Assembly (NCBI RefSeq): GCF_023169545.1
Contig: NZ_AP019769.1
Span: 411,053 to 435,052 of the forward strand
Direction: 5' to 3'
DNA from: Nanobdella aerobiophila
GTDB taxonomy: Archaea; Nanobdellota; Nanobdellia; Nanobdellales; Nanobdellaceae
Length of the DNA: 24,000 nucleotides
Part shown: piece by piece, positions 4,658-20,825 of the stretch
How positions within the stretch are numbered: the stretch's first letter is position 1
How the letters are laid out: the number at the start of each line of letters is the position of its first letter
The notes under the pieces: model-generated
Database searches by the model: none
Seen by the model: only the letters and a program-made list of their open reading frames with translations
Told to the model about the DNA's origin: nothing
Translations under genes and position numbers: made by a program

Positions 4658-4741
4658 GCGGAGGTGTCCGAGAGGCCAAAGGAGATCGGTTGAGGTCCGA
4701 CTGGTGCAGAACCGCCAGGGGTTCAAATCCCCTCCTCCGCA
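4658..4741 (+). tRNA. tRNA-Leu (anticodon GAG), class II with long variable arm
   Basis: Manual cloverleaf: acceptor GCGGAGG/CCTCCGC, anticodon loop TTGAGGT, variable arm TGGTG-CAGAAC-CGCC, T arm AGGGG-TTCAAAT-CCCCT, discriminator A. No encoded CCA. There is one A27:C43 mismatch at the top of the anticodon stem. Confidence 0.9.
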
Positions 4742-4843: not shown

Positions 4844-4953
4844 ATATTGAATGATGCAAGATTATTTAGATCAATTATATGGTTATTATGAACTAGATTT
4901 GTAGATAGCAAACATCTATTATCTCATTTATTGAAAAATAGAATATTAAATTC

Positions 4954-5036
4954 TGGACCCGCAGGGATTCGAACCCTGGAAGACTCTCGTCATCTGGACC
5001 TGAACCAGACTCCATCGACCACTCGGACACGGGTCC
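4954..5036 (-). tRNA. tRNA-Leu (anticodon CAG), class II with long variable arm
   Basis: The reverse complement folds as acceptor GGACCCG/CGGGTCC, anticodon stem TCTGG/CCAGA with loop TTCAGGT, variable arm TGACGAGAGTCTTC, T arm CAGGG-TTCGAAT-CCCTG, discriminator A. No CCA. Confidence 0.9.
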
Positions 5037-5057
5037 ATAAATTAATATTTTTTAATG

Positions 5058-5069
5058 AATTATATAATT
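5058..5069. promoter_or_regulatory. Palindromic TATA-like element AATTATATAATT, centred about 27 nt upstream of the mature 5' end of tRNA-Leu(CAG)
   Basis: This is the only strong TATA-like element in the 37-bp divergent spacer between tRNA-Leu(CAG) (5' end at 5036) and the AOR-like CDS (ATG at 5074). Its spacing fits an archaeal TATA box for the tRNA. The AT-rich background weakens the call. Confidence 0.35.
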
Positions 5070-5073
5070 TTAT

Positions 5074-6600
5074 ATGATTAGATCATTATTTATAGATCTT
5101 GATAAGAAAGAATTTAAAAATGAAATAATAGATAATAGAACTCTCGATTATTCTATAATCTTGAATAAGGATATTTATAGGACCTACGAGAGAGATCCTT
5201 ATAATAACAATCTTACTATACTATCTGCCGGATATATAAAAGATGAAAATGATATAACTTCCTTATTAATATATAGGTCACCCATAACAAATTCTTTAGA
5301 TATAAATATATCTTCATTTGGAAAATATATAAGAAATACAGGAAATGACATGATAATATTAAAAGGAAGGTTAGATAAAAAATATTTTATAATAATAGAA
5401 AATGACAATGTAATATTTTTAGAGGATGATATAGAAGAAGATATATATAATAAAAAGGAAAAATTATATGGAGAATTAAAAAATATATATGGTAACGAAG
5501 ACTTTATATTATTATTAAACGGTTTAGGATCAAAATATACTATATATGGAAATTTAATAATATTTAAAGATGATAAGATTAAAGCAACAAAAGGTGGTAT
5601 AGGCTCGGTTTTATATAATTATCATAATATTTCCGGGATTTCTATCGGAGGAAATAACCATGTAAAAATAAATGAGATTAAGATAAATGAAAAAAATATG
5701 AATTTTCATGAGAACATTAATGATGTATACAACTTAATATATGAAAAAGTACCCATATTAAATTTTAAAAATATTTATCTGGCAAAAGAAGAAAATAAAA
5801 AAATTTTCGAAGATTTTATATATCCTTTGATAAATAATTTGAAGAAAAAATATCCATATGAGCCTTTTAATATGTTTGGGCCTTTTTTAGGTATATTTGA
5901 TGAAAATTATATTTCATTATTGATAGATAAGGCAAATAGATATGGTCTTGATACATTATATTTAGGTTTTATTCTAGGACTTATATTGGAAGGTCTTGCA
6001 ATGAACAAAGTAAATATAAATGGATTAAATAGTTCTATATTTGATTTTAATAATTTAGATAGATCAACAGAAAATAATTATAAAATTGTAGATTATCTAA
6101 TGGATAAAATCGCTTATGAAGAACTATCTATTCTAGGAAAGAATATAAGATATATTTCTAATATATTTAATCTAGACGATATATCTGTATATGCACCTTT
6201 GGGAGAATCTTATTCTGCAGTGTTCAATCCATATATATCATTGGGTTTGTTTTTACCAAATATAATATATGATAAATATTTTTCAGATCATTTAATGAAT
6301 CCTACTGATCCAGTTAGCTATGCAGAATTAAATTATGGAAGACTTGAATCAACATTTTATATAAATAATTTACATGATAATATATATAATTTTAAAAGGG
6401 ATAATGTTTTCGTAAAGATGTTAGAGTATCAGAAATTAACAAATTCTATGCCTAATTTTAATTATTCAAAAAGATTAAACGATATATACTTGTATATATC
6501 CAGAAATTATAATTTAAATTATACTTTTGAAGATTATTTTTTAAACTATTATAATAGATATAAAGAATTAATATATAATAATAAAGCCTCCGTAGTGTAG
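5074..6600 (+). CDS. Aldehyde:ferredoxin oxidoreductase (AOR)-family homolog, highly diverged and cysteine-free
   Basis: The blocks line up with my recollection of the P. furiosus AOR sequence. SPITN..FGKYIRNTGNDMIILKG matches SPLTG..FGAELKFAGYDAIVVEG. ATKGGIGSVLYNYHNISGISIGG matches AGRGGVGAVMGSKNLKAIAVEG. YEPFNMFGPFLGIFD......ANRYGLDTLYLG matches YESVWALGANLGIND......CDELGLDTISTG. The 508-aa translation contains no Cys. Confidence 0.7.
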   Translation: MIRSLFIDLDKKEFKNEIIDNRTLDYSIILNKDIYRTYERDPYNNNLTILSAGYIKDENDITSLLIYRSPITNSLDINISSFGKYIRNTGNDMIILKGRLDKKYFIIIENDNVIFLEDDIEEDIYNKKEKLYGELKNIYGNEDFILLLNGLGSKYTIYGNLIIFKDDKIKATKGGIGSVLYNYHNISGISIGGNNHVKINEIKINEKNMNFHENINDVYNLIYEKVPILNFKNIYLAKEENKKIFEDFIYPLINNLKKKYPYEPFNMFGPFLGIFDENYISLLIDKANRYGLDTLYLGFILGLILEGLAMNKVNINGLNSSIFDFNNLDRSTENNYKIVDYLMDKIAYEELSILGKNIRYISNIFNLDDISVYAPLGESYSAVFNPYISLGLFLPNIIYDKYFSDHLMNPTDPVSYAELNYGRLESTFYINNLHDNIYNFKRDNVFVKMLEYQKLTNSMPNFNYSKRLNDIYLYISRNYNLNYTFEDYFLNYYNRYKELIYNNKASVV

Positions 6601-6660
6601 CCAGGACAACATTCCGGGCTTCGGTCCTGGAGATCAGGGGTTCGAATCCCCTCGGAGGCT
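6586..6660 (+). tRNA. tRNA-Arg (anticodon UCG)
   Basis: Acceptor GCCTCCG/CGGAGGC, D arm GTGT-AGCCAGGACA-ACAT, anticodon stem CCGGG/CCTGG with loop CTTCGGT, T arm AGGGG-TTCGAAT-CCCCT, discriminator T. The first 15 nt lie inside the preceding CDS. The last nt is shared with the stop codon of the next minus-strand CDS. Confidence 0.92.
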
Positions 6661-7604
6661 TATATATCCTTATAAATTGTATTATATATTTTATTGATTA
6701 GATATTTTATCTTATATATATTTAAATTAAGTATATCTTCATGTTTTAATTCTTTAGAAATCTCATTAAAATCGTTTTTATTTAGTTTATTTTCATTAAA
6801 TAGTTTAATTATTCCTTCTGTAATATCTATATAATCTTCAGGTAAATAAAAAGATATATCTTCTAGCAATTTTAGAAAATTTATCATGGATTTATCGTCA
6901 TCAATTATTAAAGGTAATGCTTCGGCTGTATTTATGAATTTATATGCATAATCTTTATAATTTTTTCCTTTTTTTGATAATAAATAATTATTTATTATTA
7001 TATTTGCTAGTGGTGAAAATATAATATCTAATGCTATGTTCATCTTAAATCTGTTCAGATATAAATTATATACAGCTTTTATCTTTTTATTTTGTTTATC
7101 TAATATAAAATTTTTTATTTCTTTAGTTATATAGATTATATCTCTCTCTTTTAATCTATAAAATTCTTTTTCTTCTATAATATTTTTTAAATTATCTGTA
7201 ATTATGCTCAAAGTATTATAGTATTCATAAGAAAATCCAATATTTTTAGAGAGAGTTCTTAATCTTCTATTATAATCAGTTAAACTATAATAAGAATATG
7301 GTAATCTTTTTTTATATAGATCATAATTTTTTATTATATCTATATAAGATTTTATATCTAATTCTTTAAATAAGCTATCTATTGATTTTCTTAATAGTTC
7401 ATCTATATTTTTATAAGTTATTAATTTACTTGATCTTATTGTTTCAATAAGATTTCTAGCAAATATTCTTTCTTTTTCATTATTAATATTTATCTTTTTT
7501 ATATCTTCTTTATTTATCGAATTTATAAAATTTAATATCTCTAATAAATCAACATTTGGATTTATATATTTTATATCTATTTGATAGTAATTATCTAAAC
7601 CCAT
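6660..7604 (-). CDS. Hypothetical protein (314 aa, predicted mostly helical, soluble)
   Basis: A long ORF that fills the gap between tRNA-Arg and the methyltransferase gene exactly. I recognise no motif. Confidence 0.6.
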   Translation of the reverse strand: MGLDNYYQIDIKYINPNVDLLEILNFINSINKEDIKKININNEKERIFARNLIETIRSSKLITYKNIDELLRKSIDSLFKELDIKSYIDIIKNYDLYKKRLPYSYYSLTDYNRRLRTLSKNIGFSYEYYNTLSIITDNLKNIIEEKEFYRLKERDIIYITKEIKNFILDKQNKKIKAVYNLYLNRFKMNIALDIIFSPLANIIINNYLLSKKGKNYKDYAYKFINTAEALPLIIDDDKSMINFLKLLEDISFYLPEDYIDITEGIIKLFNENKLNKNDFNEISKELKHEDILNLNIYKIKYLINKIYNTIYKDI

Positions 7605-9242: not shown

Positions 9243-9830
9243 ATTTTAAAGTTTTTTATTATTTTTATAAATTTAATATTAGAAAATAAAAATATTTTAA
9301 TATTATATTTGTACTATATAAAAACCTAAATTCAACTAATTTATAACATAATATAATATAATTTTAATATTGATTACAATATTTAACTTTATTTATTACT
9401 ATAGAATCATTAAATAATTAAATATTCCTATATTTTTAGAAAATAATACTCATATCTTTTCTAGAATATTTTATAACTCTTCCAATTTAGCTATATAATT
9501 ATTTCTATTTATTATAGTATGTATAAAGCTAATATATGAAGATGAATAAATTATATATTCATATCTATAATTATGAACTAGATAATCTAGTTCATCCATT
9601 TTTTATAATTTTAATATCTTCTTTTATAATTTCTATAACTTTTTTAACATTGAAATAACCTTCAATATCTTTTGATAGAATTACCTTCTAGACTCTTGAT
9701 TTTTTCATTTAAATCTTATCGTTATTAATTAAAAAATATATTTAAAATATTACCTTATAGTAGTCATATAATTGTTAGATTAATATATAAAATAACTATT
9801 TTTATAAACATATTTATCAAAAGATAGGTA

Positions 9831-10478: not shown

Positions 10479-11819
10479 TTATTGAGGTTTTTGCGATAGA
10501 TATAAATTAAATATATGTTCTAAAGCCTTTTTATTATCATCGAAATCATCTTTTTTATATGATTTAGTGCTTTTTATTATATCTTCTAGATTATATAGTT
10601 TTGTATTTTTAAAGATAATTGATTTATAATCAAAATAATTATTTTCTCCTATAATATCTTTGTATATGTCATCTATAAATTTATTATCATTTGTATCGCT
10701 AGAACATATAACTTCTGACTCTTCTTTTTTACAATATTTAAATATTTTTATCTTTTTTATACTATCTATTAAATCTTTAGTATTTTCTAATAATAAAGAT
10801 TCTAAAGTTTTGCTATTTGTAGGTACTTCTAATCCTGAAGCTATATCTATATAATTTATATCATTTCCACCTCTAGTAATCTGATATAATGCAATATCAG
10901 ATATCGAATATTTATTATCTACTACAGATTTTATTATCAATTCTATCGAAGAAGTTAGTTTATATAAAAATTCATCATATGGTAATTTTACATAAAAATT
11001 ATTTAAATTATCTCTATCAAATTCAAATTTATAATCTAATCCAAGTATATATGAAGGTATTGTTGGATTTTTAACTATATCTGATATTATTAATGCTGAA
11101 AGATTATTTTTTGCAGTTAATATTGGCATTATATACATATCATACGTTCCTTCTTGGTAATATAATATATAGGGATTTTCTTGATAATATGGTTTGCTAA
11201 TGTACCTTAATTCTTTTATATTTTTGTTATTGATAATTAAAGGCATTCCCAATAATAAAGGTACATAATATATTCCATATATATTCTTTTTTAATGCCCT
11301 GTATTTACTTTTTATATCTTTCTCTACGTCTATAGTATGGTCAGCTAAGAATTTAGAGTTATATGGTCTAATCTCGCTTAACTTTATTTTTTCCCCTTTT
11401 TTATTATATAATATTAAAGATTCTGGTAGCTTTCTTCTAAACTTCTCAATATTAATATCCTTTCTTTTGTTACCTATTAAAGTTTCATATAATATTTCAT
11501 CATCTTTTATTCTTATTGAAACCCTAAATTTATCAAAAGTACTACTCACTAATTTTTGATAAAATTCCCCATAATTATTATAAAAATTTTTACCTATTAT
11601 ACCTCTATTTTTTAAACTTTTTAAATATTCTATATTCGGCAAGTATTCAGAGTAAATCTTTGGAAATATATCTTTTTTATCAGTGTATTCAGAACCATTA
11701 TTTCCTATAAAAAAATATGAACAACTATTATATTCTTTATTTATTATCCTTCGAATATAATTTATGTATTCATTAAATGACTTTAGATTACATATTTCAT
11801 CTATTATATTATTATCCAT
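10479..11819 (-). CDS. Uncharacterised protein, paralog A of an unrecognised family (446 aa)
   Basis: A long ORF sharing collinear blocks with the ORF at 12415-13692. YISKPYYQENP is identical in both. SYILGLDYKFEFD aligns with PYILGLSYKFELD. KLPESLIL aligns with KLPESTIL. YQIT..G....IDIASG aligns with YQIT..G....IDIAPG. There is no P-loop, Cys cluster, signal peptide or TM segment. Confidence 0.8.
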   Translation of the reverse strand: MDNNIIDEICNLKSFNEYINYIRRIINKEYNSCSYFFIGNNGSEYTDKKDIFPKIYSEYLPNIEYLKSLKNRGIIGKNFYNNYGEFYQKLVSSTFDKFRVSIRIKDDEILYETLIGNKRKDINIEKFRRKLPESLILYNKKGEKIKLSEIRPYNSKFLADHTIDVEKDIKSKYRALKKNIYGIYYVPLLLGMPLIINNKNIKELRYISKPYYQENPYILYYQEGTYDMYIMPILTAKNNLSALIISDIVKNPTIPSYILGLDYKFEFDRDNLNNFYVKLPYDEFLYKLTSSIELIIKSVVDNKYSISDIALYQITRGGNDINYIDIASGLEVPTNSKTLESLLLENTKDLIDSIKKIKIFKYCKKEESEVICSSDTNDNKFIDDIYKDIIGENNYFDYKSIIFKNTKLYNLEDIIKSTKSYKKDDFDDNKKALEHIFNLYLSQKPQ

Positions 11820-12414
11820 TTAGAAATTTCAATAAAAATATTTATATATATTATTAATATATTACTTATAAAAGAGGAACAAAAATTTTAAGATTTGTAT
11901 AATTTTAATTAATTTTTTATGTGATTTATATATAAAATATTTATAATAAATCTAGCATTTTATCATTGAGTTAATTATTTTTCTTATAATTTTCTATATA
12001 TTATTTTTTTAATTATATAAAATCTATGAGTTATTAACTGGAAATTTTTGTTTTATTCTTATAAAGGAAATAGGTATATATATCTTCTAGATTAATTTCT
12101 TTAATTTTTATATTTAACACACTATTATTTAAGCTATAATTATAAAATAAATTTAACTAGATCTTTTAAATCTCTTAAAACATAAATAGCAAATTTTCTT
12201 TTTACAACCATAGATCAGAATAAAGGAATATGATATATCAGAGTCAAAGACATAGGACTGGATTTGGAATACAGTATAAAGATATGGTTTTATAAAAGGA
12301 AAATATAGTTTTTTCAGTAGAGACTACCGACATTGCAGGCTTAGTATTTTTTCTCTTCTGCTTGCTTTAATAATTTAGTAATAATACATTAAAATATAAT
12401 AGAAAACTTTTGGA

Positions 12415-13692
12415 TTAAAATTGTTTATATTCTTTAGCATATAGTTTATGAATTTTTAATATATTACTTGTTATTTTTTCAAATTCATCTTCATCTAAAG
12501 AATCTACCATATCCATATAACCTTTTATATCAATTCCATTCTTAATTTTTTCTCCTAAATTATATGGTGTTTTTGTGTTGAATATATTATCTTTACAAAC
12601 GATATAATTGTCTTTTATTTCACATCTTTTTAATATTTCAAATTTATCTGCATCTAATAATTCATTATATGCATTTTCTACTAAAGCTTTCAATCCTCCT
12701 TGATTAATTGCAACTCCAAATCCAGGAGCTATATCAATAAAAATTGGTTCCCTCCCATTAAAAGTTATTTGATATGGTCCTACATCTGATGGCACAAATT
12801 TCATATTAATAATAGATTTTAATGTTTTATCTATAAACTCGGTAGCTTTCCCTATAATATTGTCAATTTTTTCTTCTATCTTTATTTTATTTATAGCCTC
12901 TTTATCCAATTCAAATTTATATGATAATCCCAAAATATAAGGTTCAAATGTAGGATGTCTTACTATACTCAGTAAAGTTAGATGACTTAAATAATTTTCT
13001 GATATACTTATTGGTTTTTTAACTATCTCATAAGGACCACCACAACCATAAAATGGGGTTGAAGCAAAGGGGTTCTCCTGATAATATGGCTTACTAATAT
13101 AAAGTATTTTTGGAAAATATTGTTCAAATGATAGAAGTAGATGAACGGCAAATATTGTAGGAATATATATAGGGCCAGTATGATTTTTTTCTATTTTTTT
13201 AATATTTTTTTCTAAATAGATATTAGGGAGTTCTACATAATATCTAAGTTCTGATAATTTCTTTTCCCTTTCATCCTGTGTATTTCCATCTTGTGCTGAA
13301 GTTTTTGTTAAAATCGTAGACTCTGGTAATTTAGTTCTATTTTGTAGTGAAGAAAGATAAATATCGTTTCTTCCCTTAAGAATATCCTTTTCATATATAA
13401 TTTCTTTTTCTGTTTTTGTATGAAAAACCATCAATATTTTTTCAGGATGTTTTTCTAATACTTCAGTAAGATCTCCTGAAAATCTTATCTCTTCAATGAA
13501 ATTTTTATAAAAAGGTAAATATTGTAGTGGCAATATTGATGATTTTGATATTGTAGTAGAATATTCTCGACCTACAGCAAGATAAGAAGCCGATCTAAAA
13601 TCACCGTTTACATATTCTCTAATAAATCGTATATAATTATCATAATTACTAGATTCTTCTAATTTTTTATCTAAATTATCTAAAGCGACCAT
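12415..13692 (-). CDS. Uncharacterised protein, paralog B of the same unrecognised family (425 aa)
   Basis: See paralog A. By eye the two are roughly a quarter to a third identical along the full length, with the same block order. Confidence 0.8.
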   Translation of the reverse strand: MVALDNLDKKLEESSNYDNYIRFIREYVNGDFRSASYLAVGREYSTTISKSSILPLQYLPFYKNFIEEIRFSGDLTEVLEKHPEKILMVFHTKTEKEIIYEKDILKGRNDIYLSSLQNRTKLPESTILTKTSAQDGNTQDEREKKLSELRYYVELPNIYLEKNIKKIEKNHTGPIYIPTIFAVHLLLSFEQYFPKILYISKPYYQENPFASTPFYGCGGPYEIVKKPISISENYLSHLTLLSIVRHPTFEPYILGLSYKFELDKEAINKIKIEEKIDNIIGKATEFIDKTLKSIINMKFVPSDVGPYQITFNGREPIFIDIAPGFGVAINQGGLKALVENAYNELLDADKFEILKRCEIKDNYIVCKDNIFNTKTPYNLGEKIKNGIDIKGYMDMVDSLDEDEFEKITSNILKIHKLYAKEYKQF

Positions 13693-13788
13693 ATTTTGAT
13701 TTATTTATATAAATTTTTTATAAATGTAACTATTTAAGAGTAATATTATATATTTTACTTTTTAAGTATTTAATCAACATTCCTTATT

Positions 13789-14991
13789 ATGTTAATAGGT
13801 CTAACTGGAAAACCAAATGTAGGGAAATCAACAATGTTTAAAGCAATAACATTACAAGATGTTGCAATAGCAAACTATCCATTTACGACAATCGATCCCA
13901 ATAAAGGTTATGGTTTTGTTAAAGTAGAAGATGTAGGTCCTGAATTTAATGTTAAGTCAAATCCGAGAAATGGATTTATAAAAGATAAGTACAGATTCGT
14001 TCCAATAGAAATTATAGATATAGCAGGTTTGGTGCCTGGAGCACATGAAGGTAAGGGGTTGGGTAATAAATTTTTAGATGATGTTAGACAAGCAGATTTA
14101 TTAATACATGTCGTAGATATTTCTGGAAGTACAAATGCAGAAGGTCAATACCTAGGTCCTGGTAATTATGATCCTTCAAATGATATAATATGGTATGAAG
14201 AAGAGATAAATTGGTGGTTTTTTAACATTATAAAAAAGAATTTGGAAAAAAATATAAGAAAAATAAAAAATGAACACTTAGAATTAGATAAAGAATTAGC
14301 AAAGTTAATATCAGGATTAAATATAAAAGAATACCATATATCAAAATCTTTTAAAGATTTAAATATAAATAACGATGATTATGATATATTAGATGATGAT
14401 AACAAACTATTCCAGCTTGCTTCTACTATAAGAAAAAATTCTAAACCAATTATTATCGCTGCAAATAGGATAGATATTAATATAGATATTGCTAAAAATA
14501 ATTTGAAAAAATTAAAAGAAAAGTTTCCAGATAAGATTATTATACCAACTTCAGGTTATGCAGAATTAATATTAAAAGAATTAGACAAAAAAGGTAAAAT
14601 ATATTATATACCGGGAGATAATCATTTTAAAATAATAGGAGATTTAAATGATAAGGAAAAAAAGGCTATAGAATTTATTAAGGAGAAGATATTATTAGAA
14701 TTTAATAGTACCGGAGTTCAAGATATCCTGAACTATTCTGTATTTGATTTATTAAAGTATGTTGCTATATTTCCAGGTGGTATAGATTCATTAGCAGATA
14801 AAGAAGGTAGAATATTGCCAGATTGTTTTTTAATGCCTCCAGGAAGTACAGTGCTAGATTTTGCAAATAGAATTCATTCAGATTTAGCAAAAAACTTTAT
14901 AAAAGCAATAGATGTAAGAACAAAAAAAATGCTAGGTAAAGATTATATATTAAAGAATAGAGATATAATACAAATCATAGCTAATGCATAA
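13789..14991 (+). CDS. Obg-superfamily GTPase, YchF/OLA1- or DRG-related, with C-terminal TGS domain
   Basis: Motifs are G1 GKPNVGKST, G2 YPFTTIDPN, G3 DIAGLV and a G4-like NRID. The C-terminal TGS-like end is GKDYILKNRDIIQI. Confidence 0.85.
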   Translation: MLIGLTGKPNVGKSTMFKAITLQDVAIANYPFTTIDPNKGYGFVKVEDVGPEFNVKSNPRNGFIKDKYRFVPIEIIDIAGLVPGAHEGKGLGNKFLDDVRQADLLIHVVDISGSTNAEGQYLGPGNYDPSNDIIWYEEEINWWFFNIIKKNLEKNIRKIKNEHLELDKELAKLISGLNIKEYHISKSFKDLNINNDDYDILDDDNKLFQLASTIRKNSKPIIIAANRIDINIDIAKNNLKKLKEKFPDKIIIPTSGYAELILKELDKKGKIYYIPGDNHFKIIGDLNDKEKKAIEFIKEKILLEFNSTGVQDILNYSVFDLLKYVAIFPGGIDSLADKEGRILPDCFLMPPGSTVLDFANRIHSDLAKNFIKAIDVRTKKMLGKDYILKNRDIIQIIANA

Positions 14992-15225: not shown

Positions 15226-16494
15226 ATGCTTTTTTTAAAATTATTTGGTTATATATTACCAATAATAATATCTATATTTGTAATATACATACTAGTAGGC
15301 ATATACAGATATAATAAAAATTATATTAATTTAGATTCTCATAATTTTGATAAAAATAAAATCTTTATTTTAGTTCCTTTATATAATGAAAAATTAGAGA
15401 ACTTTAAATTACAAATAAATTTGTATAAAAAATATAATATTTTATATATATTAAATGGATCATTAGAACCTTATAAGAGTATTTTAGAAGAAAATAATAT
15501 AAGATACATTTATATAGATGAAAAGAATAAAAAGAAAGCAGTATGGACGGGTTTAGATTATATAAAGAAATTTAACCCAGAATATATATTATTATTAGAT
15601 AGTGATACAATAATAACAGATAAAGACATAATAGAAGGTTTAAATTATATAGAAAAATTTAATATTTCTGCTCTATCCTTTAATATATTATATTATGGAA
15701 ATAATATATATAACGATTTAATCAGTTTAATAAATCAAACATTTATATATATAAACAAAGGCTTTACAGGTAATAATAGATGTCATTTCTTATATGGTCA
15801 GTGTATTCTAGGAAAATTTGGTGATATATATGACGCATATAAATTAATTTCTGAAAAATATATTAATAAAAAATTAGGAGATGACAGATTGTTAGCTTCT
15901 ATATTGATAAATAATAATAAAAAAATATTTTATTTAGATAATAATTATATAATTACCGAAGGAATAAATTCTTTTAATGAATTAATAAAGAAATTTACTA
16001 GATATATGAGATCTTTAATTATTATATCAATAATTGATATTAAAGAAAGGTATATATTTAAAAAATCCATTTTTTATTATTTGTATTTATTTATATCTTT
16101 CTTACCATTAGTATTATATATTTATAACTTCTATACGATTTTAGGATTTATCTTATCATCAAAACATCTTTCCATATATATTGTAAAAGGATTATTTTAT
16201 AAGATATTATATATTAATATTGTCTCTGATATAAGATTTTTATATAATTTAATATTTTATAAAAATTGGATAAGTCATTTATTTAATTATCCGCATATAT
16301 TTGTCCATTTGTTATATATCTTATTTAAATATTTTGTAATATCTTTCTATATGATATCAATATATGCTATATATATAAAATATATCCATAAAAAGAGCCC
16401 TATATTATTATATATGCTTTTTTCTTTTATTTATCCTTTTATTTTGTTTTATTCTTTATTTACTTTTTTTAAGGATGATTGGTTGACAAGATAA
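15226..16494 (+). CDS. Family 2 glycosyltransferase, membrane-integrated, processive synthase-like (NodC / hyaluronan / chitin-synthase type)
   Basis: An N-terminal TM helix is followed by LVPLYNE, LLLDSDT, GDDRLLA (the GEDRxLT equivalent) and KKFTRYMRS where Q(Q/R)xRW is expected. About 150 aa of multi-pass membrane domain follows. Confidence 0.8.
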   Translation: MLFLKLFGYILPIIISIFVIYILVGIYRYNKNYINLDSHNFDKNKIFILVPLYNEKLENFKLQINLYKKYNILYILNGSLEPYKSILEENNIRYIYIDEKNKKKAVWTGLDYIKKFNPEYILLLDSDTIITDKDIIEGLNYIEKFNISALSFNILYYGNNIYNDLISLINQTFIYINKGFTGNNRCHFLYGQCILGKFGDIYDAYKLISEKYINKKLGDDRLLASILINNNKKIFYLDNNYIITEGINSFNELIKKFTRYMRSLIIISIIDIKERYIFKKSIFYYLYLFISFLPLVLYIYNFYTILGFILSSKHLSIYIVKGLFYKILYINIVSDIRFLYNLIFYKNWISHLFNYPHIFVHLLYILFKYFVISFYMISIYAIYIKYIHKKSPILLYMLFSFIYPFILFYSLFTFFKDDWLTR

Positions 16495-16886
16495 AATACA
16501 TTTCTTATACTTAATAAAAAAATTGTTATACCGAAAAATAATATTATAGGATTTGGAAAAGTACCATAATTAGATGCTATATTTCTTACTGCTATATCTA
16601 ATATATTGTTATCGTACAAAGTGAATGCAGAAAACAATATAAGTATAGAGATCATAAAAGATATTAAGTATCCATAATTATTATTCTTATATATTAAGTA
16701 TATAGATATTATTGATATAAAAAGTATTATAAATAAAAATATTTCAACAGATATAACAATATTATAATTAAATATTGGTTTGTATACTATATATGCCACT
16801 AAATCTAAAAATGTTTCTAGAGAAAACAAAGACATAAGTATTAATAAAATTTCTTTCCTTATATTTATACCTTCTACTTTATCCAT
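16449..16886 (-). CDS. Hypothetical membrane protein (about 4 TM)
   Basis: A hydrophobic 145-aa ORF. Its start overlaps the stop of the upstream thiolase gene by 8 nt. Its 3' end overlaps the convergent GT2 gene by 46 nt. Confidence 0.55.
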   Translation of the reverse strand: MDKVEGINIRKEILLILMSLFSLETFLDLVAYIVYKPIFNYNIVISVEIFLFIILFISIISIYLIYKNNNYGYLISFMISILILFSAFTLYDNNILDIAVRNIASNYGTFPNPIILFFGITIFLLSIRNVFYLVNQSSLKKVNKE

Positions 16887-19038: not shown

Positions 19039-19656
19039 ATGATATTGACTCCTTTATTAAATCTAATAAGTTCATATAATTATCTTAAGGTATCCATAGT
19101 ATTTATTTCTATAGTTGTAATTGGTTATTTTATAGGAAAATTAGTATCATTTATATTAAAAATTATATTAAATAAGATACTGGGATTTGATAGCTGGTTG
19201 CATTCCAGAGGGATAGCTCAGGAATACTCCATTACGAATATAATACTAAGTATAATAAGATTTTTTATATATTTTTATTTTATAGGTTATGCTTTCAAGA
19301 TATTACCATATAATATATCAATAATAGGTATTTTATTACTTTCTGTACTAAATTATCTATTAATTATTATACTATCTATGATCATTGCCTTTATAATGCT
19401 TGAAATGATAATAAAAACATCCATAGAACCAATATTAAATAATATAAAATATAAATCAGAAATGATGACTCTACTAAGATTTATAACAATGTTCTTTGTT
19501 CTAGTATTATTATTAAGTTATCTAAATTTATTGTCTCCGATATTATTATATCTATTTATTATATTATTTTCAGGAATGATAATTCCTATATCTATAGCAT
19601 TAGGGATTGCTTTAGGAGACTTGTTTAAAGAAAAAATAAAAGACCTAAAGAAATGA
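19039..19656 (+). CDS. Hypothetical multi-pass membrane protein
   Basis: A 205-aa ORF with about 5 hydrophobic helices. Its stop overlaps the next gene's start by 4 nt. Confidence 0.6.
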   Translation: MILTPLLNLISSYNYLKVSIVFISIVVIGYFIGKLVSFILKIILNKILGFDSWLHSRGIAQEYSITNIILSIIRFFIYFYFIGYAFKILPYNISIIGILLLSVLNYLLIIILSMIIAFIMLEMIIKTSIEPILNNIKYKSEMMTLLRFITMFFVLVLLLSYLNLLSPILLYLFIILFSGMIIPISIALGIALGDLFKEKIKDLKK

Positions 19657-20825
19657 ATTATAAAGAAAGGATAATATTATTGTCTAATAACTTATTAAGT
19701 GGTATATTAAATAGTATATATTTTGTCTACCCATCCTTTTACCATTTTAATTCATCGATATACTTTTTTATAGTATTTATATCGTATTTTGGATCAATAC
19801 TCTCTTCTATAATATTTGGAAATATAAAGGTAAATGGTAATAATTATATAAAGTGGTCTCTAGTTGGTATAGCTGGACCATTATTATCCATATTATTCTT
19901 ATTCTATCCAAACACATATTTATACATATTCTCATATCTATTATTTTCTTTTACATATTATTCTACATATTTTGTATTTTTATTGTATTATAAAGATGTT
20001 AAATTAAATTTCTATTTTAATATTTATTGGACAATTGGAGAAATTATACCACAAATATCATTATTATTTGTATCAATAATGTTAAATTTATATATAATTA
20101 GTATATTGCTCTTATTATCGATATTAGTTGTTTTATCAAGAGAAATATACATGTTTCTATTTACAGAAGCTTATGAACTTAATTTATTAGTGAAAATTGA
20201 TAAGATATTTTCTCAAATAGATCATGATATAAGTAATTTTGGAACGCTAGTTCCACTCTTTGAAGGCCTATTATATCCTATAAATATTAGAAAATTAAAA
20301 TTTGGCTACATTGAATTATATAATTTTTTTGTATTAATCGGTTTTTCTCTTGTATGGTCATCTTTAGTATTTCTTGTTGATAAAATAAATTTAGGAAATA
20401 TATATCCATTATTATTATTCATTAATGGACTATATACTTCGATATTTTATAAGATATATAAGAGAACCATCAATAATAATAATGTAAATATAGGTATATT
20501 AAGCAGATTATCCATGGGCGTAATATTAATTATATTTTCTGTGATTTATTCCGTATTAAGTATACCAATAAATGGAATAATAATGACTGTATTATTTATT
20601 TTAGCTGCTTACTCATGGACTATGTTTCAATTCTTTTTTGATAATTTTATAATAATTAAATATCCAGAAAAATTTGGAAATGTATACTTTTTTAGGAATC
20701 TTGGCGGTATGTTTGGATCAATAATATTATTATTTATATCATTATTTAATGGTCTAATATTATCTTTAGCTATTTTGGGTATATCTATATTCTTTTTTAG
20801 GTCATATTTTAAAAAAGTAATATAG
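19653..20825 (+). CDS. Polytopic membrane protein, possibly an MFS-type transporter
   Basis: A 390-aa ORF with about 10-12 hydrophobic segments. No diagnostic motif, so the transporter assignment is weak. Confidence 0.6.
   Translation: MNYKERIILLSNNLLSGILNSIYFVYPSFYHFNSSIYFFIVFISYFGSILSSIIFGNIKVNGNNYIKWSLVGIAGPLLSILFLFYPNTYLYIFSYLLFSFTYYSTYFVFLLYYKDVKLNFYFNIYWTIGEIIPQISLLFVSIMLNLYIISILLLLSILVVLSREIYMFLFTEAYELNLLVKIDKIFSQIDHDISNFGTLVPLFEGLLYPINIRKLKFGYIELYNFFVLIGFSLVWSSLVFLVDKINLGNIYPLLLFINGLYTSIFYKIYKRTINNNNVNIGILSRLSMGVILIIFSVIYSVLSIPINGIIMTVLFILAAYSWTMFQFFFDNFIIIKYPEKFGNVYFFRNLGGMFGSIILLFISLFNGLILSLAILGISIFFFRSYFKKVI

Follow-up and report, generated by a model that had tools for sequence, protein, structure and literature searches.

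Why does an archaeon with a strongly reduced genome keep two diverged copies of a protein that matches no described family by sequence, and what might that protein do? The question is raised by MJ1_0492 and MJ1_0493, two genes both annotated as "hypothetical protein" in the 24,000-nucleotide stretch analysed here (the window; NZ_AP019769.1, positions 411,053 to 435,052). The source, Nanobdella aerobiophila MJ1, is a cultivated thermoacidophilic DPANN ectosymbiont with a genome of 668,961 bp, in keeping with the reduced, symbiont-like genome that a first-pass annotation had surmised from the DNA alone. We lean towards the reading that the two proteins represent a small Nanobdellales-type family with a highly diverged protein-kinase-like (PKL) core, closest to RIO2 and Bud32, that acts as a nucleotide- and Mg2+-dependent phosphotransferase or switch. 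The genes and their most conspicuous shared motif lie as follows:

10479-11819, minus strand: MJ1_0492, 446 aa, the extra paralog, with the D/Q/D motif described below and all polar residues conserved in the family retained
12415-13692, minus strand: MJ1_0493, 425 aa, the positional orthologue of the family gene, divergent from an Obg-like GTPase gene as in Nanobdellota strain YN1 and in the related loci L003 and L009
11172-11204, minus strand: YISKPYYQENP in MJ1_0492, residues 206-216, identical to the MJ1_0493 copy
13069-13101, minus strand: YISKPYYQENP in MJ1_0493, residues 198-208, the most conserved motif of the family (S200, K201, P202, Y203, P208)

Both open reading frames (ORFs) have the lengths and positions first described and share the minus strand, and ORF 12415-13692 is identical to MJ1_0493. 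The homology proposed between them is borne out: the two proteins are 32% identical across 372 residues (BLASTP, E 4e-45), far beyond chance, and are true paralogs and old duplicates. Most of the shared blocks that had first been picked out are present in both, namely YISKPYYQENP, (S/P)YILGL(D/S)YKFE(F/L)D, KLPES.IL, KLSE(I/L)R and YQIT..G....(Y/F)IDIA(S/P)G; the block given as NYIR.IR holds for MJ1_0493 (NYIRFIR), whereas MJ1_0492 reads NYIRRII, and the C-terminal Cys pair takes the form C-x8-C. At the nucleotide level the YISKPYYQENP segment is a repeat (D2) of 82% identity over 34 nt between the two genes, with a spacing of 1897. MJ1_0493 is modelled as an N-terminal alpha/beta domain of ~80 aa, a kinase-like core at ~85-345, a Cys hairpin at 357-366 and C-terminal helices. 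The family proteins are soluble and ~420-460 aa long, and, as first thought, no transmembrane helix is found in the pair (maximum Kyte-Doolittle 19-residue mean 1.2-1.3).

How far does the family extend? The impression that it belongs to no recognisable family by sequence stands: neither paralog has a match in Pfam or NCBIfam, the family has none in PHROGs or PADLOC, and single-sequence and profile searches of PDB sequences returned nothing. When 1.84 billion cluster representatives were searched exhaustively with an HMMER profile, only 22 proteins matched at E<=1e-3. Named members, all "hypothetical protein", come from Nanobdella, strain YN1 (YN1_0540), Candidatus Nanopusillus, Nanopusillaceae metagenome-assembled genomes (MAGs) and two MAGs labelled Aenigmatarchaeota, the proteins of the latter two being remote and shorter. 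Eleven further metagenomic loci carry the gene, all of Nanopusillus type, and a scan of genome contigs returned the Nanopusillus locus alone. Nanoarchaeum equitans does not appear among the named matches, most matches carrying no source name, and a literature search on MJ1_0492, MJ1_0493 and YN1_0540 and on their expression found nothing. The family is confined to Nanobdellales-type archaea: Nanobdella, YN1, Nanopusillus/Nanopusillaceae and a few related MAGs. Whether the two copies always co-occur and stay adjacent had been raised as a question, and they do not: YN1, Nanopusillus and the 11 metagenomic loci have a single copy at this position, as do all relatives at the syntenic site (L003 and L009 included), and the tandem pair was seen in 0 of 23 related loci. 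The family tree is star-like, with MJ1_0493 near the YN1, L003 and P0008 proteins and MJ1_0492 nearer to Nanopusillaceae-type proteins.

If sequence searches are silent, what does structure prediction say? AlphaFold2 models built from one 15-sequence alignment, the same for both paralogs, reached a predicted local distance difference test score (pLDDT) of 79.1 and a predicted template-modelling score (pTM) of 0.83 for MJ1_0493, and 79.3 and 0.81 for MJ1_0492. Compared with the PDB by Foldseek, all 50 listed matches of MJ1_0493 were protein-kinase-like, with A. fulgidus Rio2 at ranks 1-3 (E 2e-3 to 4e-3, prob 0.84-0.89) ahead of PknG, VRK1, APH(3')-Ia and Bud32; for MJ1_0492, kinases made up 49 of the 50 top matches, Rio2 coming first (E 4.7e-4, prob 0.97), with Bud32 (prob 0.98), PRPK (0.96), RIOK1 (0.87) and also RIOK2 in the lists. 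Against BFVD the named matches were mostly viral Ser/Thr kinases, among them a 179-aa Cedratvirus kinase (prob 1.00, TMt 0.50). The modelled order of secondary structure, a long helix at 276-297 followed by a beta strand, D...Q, two beta strands and D, also fits the PKL fold. Both paralogs are therefore predicted to adopt a PKL bilobal fold, nearest to RIO in structure. The first-pass annotation had found the proteins unassignable to any family, and here its judgement needs revision, as both models match one known fold in three Foldseek searches. An actin/Hsp70 (ASKHA) fold was considered and rejected, as the 50 best matches of each fold search include no ASKHA protein; the IDIA(S/P)G block, earlier likened (weakly) to an actin/Hsp70 phosphate motif, aligns instead to the kinase DFG or RIO "IDxxQ" metal-binding loop.

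A profile comparison places the putative active site. We aligned a 23-member family profile by hhalign with RIO/Bud32 alignments built from PDB sequences (AfRio1, AfRio2, human RIOK1, RIOK2 and RIOK3, MjBud32 and PRPK). Against the RIO alignment the score was 27.3 (P 0.009), with MJ1_0493 residues 225-322 laid onto AfRio2 163-237; the reversed alignment scored 14.4, 30 column shuffles at most 15.9 and 30 block shuffles at most 19.3, so that the score exceeds all 61 of 61 controls. In this register MJ1_0493 D303 pairs with AfRio2 D218 (the catalytic Asp), Q308 with N223 (the Asn) and D320 with D235 (the metal-binding Asp), at the same 5/12 spacing. At the level of segments, the invariant P227 pairs with "VP" in RIO beta4, the long helix at 276-297 with helix E, "PSDVGPYQI" with "HGDLSQYNV" and "FIDIAPG" with "IIDFPQS". 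The segments concerned are:

12721-12789, minus strand: catalytic-loop-like and metal-binding-loop-like motif of MJ1_0493, residues 302-324, SDVGPYQITFNGREPIFIDIAPG, with D303, Q308 and D320
10833-10901, minus strand: the same D/Q/D motif of MJ1_0492, residues 307-329, SDIALYQITRGGNDINYIDIASG
13237-13374, minus strand: conserved polar blocks in the N-lobe of MJ1_0493, GRNDIY (R108, D110), R.KLPES (R119, K121, E124) and KLSELRYY (K145, E148, R150, Y152)

D303, Q308 and D320 are kept across the family, including its remote members P0016, P0022 and P0023, with the exception of one clade (P0014) discussed below. The RIO catalytic-loop His and metal-loop Gln are absent from the family. In the N-lobe, the blocks G..R.DIY, R.K.PES, KL.E.R.Y and YISKPY are family-wide, and their polar residues in MJ1_0493 are candidate phosphate-binding residues; YISKPYYQENP has no RIO counterpart. 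A low-confidence extended hhalign alignment pairs G..R.DIY with RIO GKES.VF.

Several observations weigh against an active, kinase-like enzyme. Only one or two of the five AlphaFold2 models per protein were confident, and the alignment behind them was shallow and common to both paralogs, so that the two models are not fully independent. The structural scores are weak (TM 0.2-0.3 to PDB kinases, root-mean-square deviation 9-20 A, E ~1e-3), and none of 17 family members matched the Pfam kinase, RIO1 or APH models even at E<=10. The N-lobe shows no significant similarity to RIO (hhalign score 8.9, shuffle maximum 11.7), a conserved Gln stands in the place of the Mg-binding Asn, and neither a Gly-rich, P-loop, STGKEA-type or GxGKES loop nor a VAIK-type beta3 ATP-binding Lys is recognisable in the family; the lack of a P-loop had already been remarked on, and no such motif was detectable. 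Might the kinase-like fold then be a prediction artefact, the proteins being instead structural or host-interaction factors of a novel fold, possibly working as an A:B heterodimer? The shallow alignment, the three or four low-confidence models out of five, the low TM-scores and the lack of similarity at the level of hidden Markov models (HMMs) would all be expected in that case. However, three Foldseek searches of two libraries returned almost exclusively kinases, the independent profile alignment gave the same catalytic-core register and beat every control, and the relatives are single-copy, so that an obligate heterodimer is no feature of the family. We consider an artefact improbable; the low TM-scores are those of a strongly diverged member of this fold, one that carries inserts and additional domains.

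A more serious rival is that the fold is real and the chemistry is not, that is, that these are pseudokinases or scaffolds in which D/Q/D serves only a structural or ligand-binding role, for instance in an adaptor or a nucleotide-sensing switch. The missing Gly-rich or P-loop motif and VAIK-type Lys, the N-lobe that will not align to RIO and the exchange of Asn for Gln all speak for it, as does the high ratio of nonsynonymous to synonymous substitution rates (dN/dS) reported below, which is typical of non-enzymatic binders. The P0014 clade bears on both sides of the question. In P0014 and its relatives, partly labelled Nanopusillus, the ORFs are full-length while D303, Q308 and D320 are replaced, together with R108, D110, R119, K121, E124, K145, Y152, S200 and K201. 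That intact ORFs survive in this clade without any of the polar motifs favours a non-catalytic role; yet the loss is co-ordinated, which implies that the residues work together, and because they were lost together we suggest that they form a single functional site. Elsewhere in the family D303, Q308, D320 and ~10 other polar residues are nearly invariant across members only ~30% identical, a pattern more typical of an active site. On balance we regard a pseudokinase as a credible but clearly less probable explanation. The family would thus appear to hold "live" and "dead" forms, like many kinase families, and both Nanobdella paralogs carry the motifs of the "live" type. As a separate observation, in L007 (1222-5743 and 10001-11374) the "dead-motif" type (P0014/P0038) shares a contig with McrBC-like (AAA_5 + McrC) and ATPase_2/DUF234 genes, a setting that looks like a defence island.

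How might a "live" member work? A nucleotide- and Mg2+-dependent enzyme or switch of atypical-kinase type is, with moderate confidence, the most likely mechanism suggested by the models and the conserved residues. The proteins would bind nucleotide and Mg2+ through D303, Q308 and D320 together with the basic residues R108, K121, K145 and K201. D303 may act as the catalytic base and Q308 and D320 as metal ligands, and in the N-lobe conserved Arg and Lys residues could substitute for the missing P-loop and Lys. The activity would be either a phosphotransferase or a RIO-type ATPase switch, on a substrate that is presumably lineage-specific and not housekeeping. Both Nanobdella copies being "live", a difference in substrate or partner between them is probable, and they may have become sub- or neo-functionalised.

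The rate at which the gene evolves sets it apart from its surroundings. Between MJ1 and YN1 the family gene is 35-36% identical and 14 neighbouring genes 50-87%, making it the fastest-evolving gene in a conserved informational block. Among Nanopusillus-type strains its dN/dS is 0.52-0.67 at dS 0.09-0.20 (Nei-Gojobori), compared with 0.04-0.22 at the same dS for five neighbours (RtcB, Orc1, the PP-loop ATPase and two unknowns). Sliding windows of pN/pS, the corresponding ratio of proportions, show patches above 1 at the N-terminus and at columns 256-300 and 316-345, with counts too small to claim positive selection. In L023 (Ga0208683_100348, a 19-kb metagenomic contig) the gene at 4969-6115 is broken into at least seven frame segments with an internal deletion, and its neighbours are ORFs that agree with their L004 counterparts in position and length; in L020 it has a single frameshift. 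Where present, the gene is under selection, yet it is accessory, fast-changing and occasionally lost.

These data also bear on a possible housekeeping role. Could MJ1_0492 and MJ1_0493 simply be the diverged Rio1 and Rio2 orthologues of this organism, still engaged in maturing the small subunit of the ribosome? Rio2 is the top structural match of both paralogs, the architecture is Rio2-like, the catalytic-loop and metal-loop spacing is identical to that of Rio2, and the surrounding genes are informational (Obg-like GTPase, RpoN, S17e, Alba). Archaea typically have two RIO genes, and at least one was present in 121 of 121 archaeal genomes surveyed (PMC5007285). On the other side, there is no RIO1 Pfam match and the RIO P-loop and Lys are absent, although other housekeeping proteins of the same genomes are easily recognisable; the gene is single-copy in YN1 and Nanopusillus and a pseudogene in L023 beside intact neighbours, and its dN/dS is 5-10x that of neighbouring housekeeping genes. 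Because the gene is accessory, fast-changing and occasionally lost, a role as the sole RIO factor in ribosome assembly is argued against, and we judge orthology of this kind unlikely.

Fast evolution, duplication, motif loss and a pseudogene, against the background of a strongly reduced genome, make the family a candidate for a function related to symbiosis or conflict. A host-interaction role is a possibility consistent with the fast evolution. Taken further, the proteins might be rapidly diversifying kinase-like effectors or regulators of the ectosymbiosis, nucleotide-dependent enzymes that act on host-derived or interface components and are possibly delivered via cell-cell contact. An arms race of this sort would account for the high dN/dS and the repeated duplication, as well as for the "dead" paralogs and the loss in a particular lineage. 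We rate this version as rather unlikely; if true, DPANN archaea would have their first candidate for a host-manipulation factor of kinase type.

Is the second copy functional at all, and how did it arise? Evidence on both lies in and around the DNA between the genes:

11820-12414, no strand: the spacer, 595 bp, comprising the MJ1_0492 upstream region, a GTPase pseudogene fragment and ~65 bp downstream of MJ1_0493
12186-12350, plus strand: Obg-like GTPase pseudogene fragment, codons ~26-83 including the DxxG region, with one in-frame stop and deletions of -1, -4 and -2 nt
13693-13788, no strand: divergent intergenic region between MJ1_0493 and the GTPase gene, 96 bp, with a TTTATATAAATAAA element ~20 nt upstream of the MJ1_0493 ATG, a putative promoter judging by its sequence
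13789-14991, plus strand: intact Obg-like GTPase (MMR_HSR1 + YGR210-like_G4 + TGS), the conserved divergent neighbour and the parent type of the fragment

Most other genes in the window abut or overlap, and this spacer and one 588-bp gap are the only long gaps. The spacer had been described as ~600 bp of non-coding DNA; its length and its lack of any ORF of at least 30 aa agree with this, but it is not featureless, since 12186-12350 on the plus strand is the remains of a GTPase gene. Read in register, the fragment gives IANFLFTTIDQNKGI*YIRVKDIG...VETTDIAGLV, and it accounts for the only GC-richer stretch of the spacer (12200-12380). The MJ1_0492 upstream region has a GC content of 8-15% and, ~25 nt ahead of the ATG, an element resembling TATATAAAT. 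A non-coding RNA in the spacer was considered and rejected, as Rfam gave no match at E<=5 and the spacer has no terminator-like sites.

The fragment is 73-75% identical in nucleotides, over 133-169 nt, to the GTPase genes of YN1, L003, Nanopusillus and L009 (E down to 5e-26), the identity to the YN1 and L003 genes also coming out at 75-78%, and 66-67% identical to the GTPase gene of MJ1 itself. At 27 sites where the MJ1 GTPase departs from the consensus of the other four genera, the fragment carries the consensus base in 20, the MJ1 base in three and neither in four. Because the fragment lies in the spacer, the order runs MJ1_0492(-) / GTPase fragment(+) // MJ1_0493(-) / GTPase(+), and the conserved nucleotide stretches of the two paralogs are ~1.89 kb apart, the sequence indicates that the pair arose by an old duplication or insertion of a unit made up of the family gene, the divergent promoter and the 5' part of the GTPase gene. 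Since the fragment sides with the consensus over MJ1 at 20 sites against three, either the duplication would predate most of the change specific to the MJ1 GTPase, or the segment came in from a relative; the star-like family phylogeny does not separate duplication in situ from import.

The fragment also offers an internal neutral control by which to judge selection on both copies. It has accumulated four disabling lesions in ~165 nt (one stop and three frame-breaking indels), while MJ1_0492 has none in 1341 nt. Because the co-duplicated GTPase piece decayed and the gene beside it stayed intact, we conclude that MJ1_0492 is kept open by selection, in agreement with the earlier view that both copies are maintained. 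What of the view that the ORFs are decaying junk that no longer functions? The elevated dN/dS and the pseudogene in one lineage are all that would suggest it, whereas ORFs of 1.25-1.37 kb with invariant motifs are intact in more than 20 lineages, dN/dS is below 1 and the lesions fall in the fragment and not in MJ1_0492. The first-pass annotation had named a lack of homologs and a dN/dS near 1 as the marks of junk; homologs are present in relatives and dN/dS is 0.52-0.67, and junk is effectively refuted, leaving it a very small residual probability.

The wider neighbourhood is conserved. MJ1, YN1, Nanopusillus and several MAGs share a syntenic block in the order RtcB, two unknowns, Orc1/Cdc6, PP-loop ATPase, small membrane protein, (GT2), RpoN, Obg-like GTPase, family gene, Alba, S17e, pyrophosphatase and RsmB. 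In YN1 (AP031373; L005 11326-12237) a 303-aa LAGLIDADG_3 homing-endonuclease-like gene runs on the other strand and overlaps the family gene's 3' end; no trace of it is found in the MJ1 window, and it is also absent from the Nanopusillus site. In four independent metagenomic or MAG contigs (L001, L003, L007 and L009) the assembly ends 50-300 bp past the stop codon of the family gene, which suggests a recurrent hard-to-assemble or variable region downstream, for which extremely high AT content, strain variation or, as in YN1, a mobile element might for example be responsible. In MJ1 a tRNA-Met gene ends 3 nt from the MJ1_0492 stop codon.

Other features of the window are recorded here in their own right. 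The 588-bp non-coding gap at 9243-9830 separates the pyrophosphatase and S17e genes, a junction of ~50 bp in YN1, and contains no ORF longer than 42 aa, no credible Rfam match and no similarity to related loci. Four more ORFs have no Pfam match: 6660-7604 (minus strand; 314 aa), 19039-19656 (plus), 19653-20825 (plus) and 16449-16886 (minus). The last three have YN1 counterparts at 59-68% identity and counterparts in Nanopusillus-type loci, and are other conserved unknowns of this lineage. ARAGORN finds two tRNA-Leu genes of 84-85 nt, at 4658-4741 (plus) and 4953-5037 (minus), that the Rfam gathering-threshold scan does not list, and a tRNA-Arg gene (6585-6661) overlaps the ends of both flanking ORFs. 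An aldehyde:ferredoxin-oxidoreductase-like ORF at 5074-6600 (plus), an odd thing to meet in an organism whose metabolism has been described as mostly missing, has weak Pfam support (AFOR_N 37 bits; AFOR_C 23.5 bits, below cut-off) and is conserved in YN1 at 66% identity.

Why do these two genes matter? Very few DPANN archaea have been cultivated, N. aerobiophila among them, and a large part of its 0.67-Mb genome lacks annotation; a kinase-like fold and candidate active-site residues turn two "hypothetical proteins" into testable enzymes, of interest for both DPANN biology and kinase evolution. If they were the organism's only RIO-type factors, they would measure how far a universal ribosome-assembly factor can diverge. 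The GTPase stump, for its part, is a record of the way in which tandem paralogs come about and are kept in a minimal genome.

Where does the family stand among known kinases? Other PKL members, including Abl, ERK, PknG, APH(3')-Ia, Legionella LegK4 and giant-virus kinases, share the overall bilobal fold, but the family has no sequence similarity to them and lacks the Gly-rich loop (GxGxxG) and the VAIK, HRD and APE motifs; of the eukaryotic protein kinase (ePK) motifs only two Asp are kept, a retention compatible with atypical kinases or pseudokinases. Bud32/PRPK, of the KEOPS complex (PDB 2VWB, 3ENH, 6WQX), offers a minimal atypical kinase fold that Foldseek matches at prob 0.96-0.98, and hhalign puts its HNDLTTSN...IIDFG on the same D/Q/D block, though not significantly (E 0.28). 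The family protein is, by contrast, twice the size of Bud32, and no gene for the partner Kae1 is found in the window or the related loci. Nanobdella has been reported to be without Sua5/TsaC, the first enzyme of the t6A (threonylcarbamoyladenosine) pathway in which Bud32 works (PMC10321239), and a Bud32/KEOPS role is unlikely for that reason.

The closest relation is to RIO2 (A. fulgidus Rio2, PDB 1TQI/1ZAO/1ZAR; PF01163), the best structural neighbour of both paralogs. In Rio2 and the family alike, a bilobal kinase core follows a small N-terminal domain, and the cores are collinear from beta4, where the RIO "VP" meets P227, via beta5 and helix E to the catalytic and metal-binding loops. They differ in that the family is without HMM-level similarity, has Gln in place of Asn and shows no recognisable GxGKES/STGKEA P-loop or beta3 Lys; it has a ~22-residue insert after the hinge (the ILGL.Y.FE block), and adds the YISKPY and R.KLPES motifs, the Cys hairpin and a helical C-terminal extension of ~80 aa. 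RIO proteins are universal and conserved, whereas this family is fast-evolving, dispensable in one lineage and taxonomically tiny. Membership in the RIO family is not established; what the comparison supports is a new atypical family, previously unrecognised, very divergent and accessory, within the well-known PKL superfamily.

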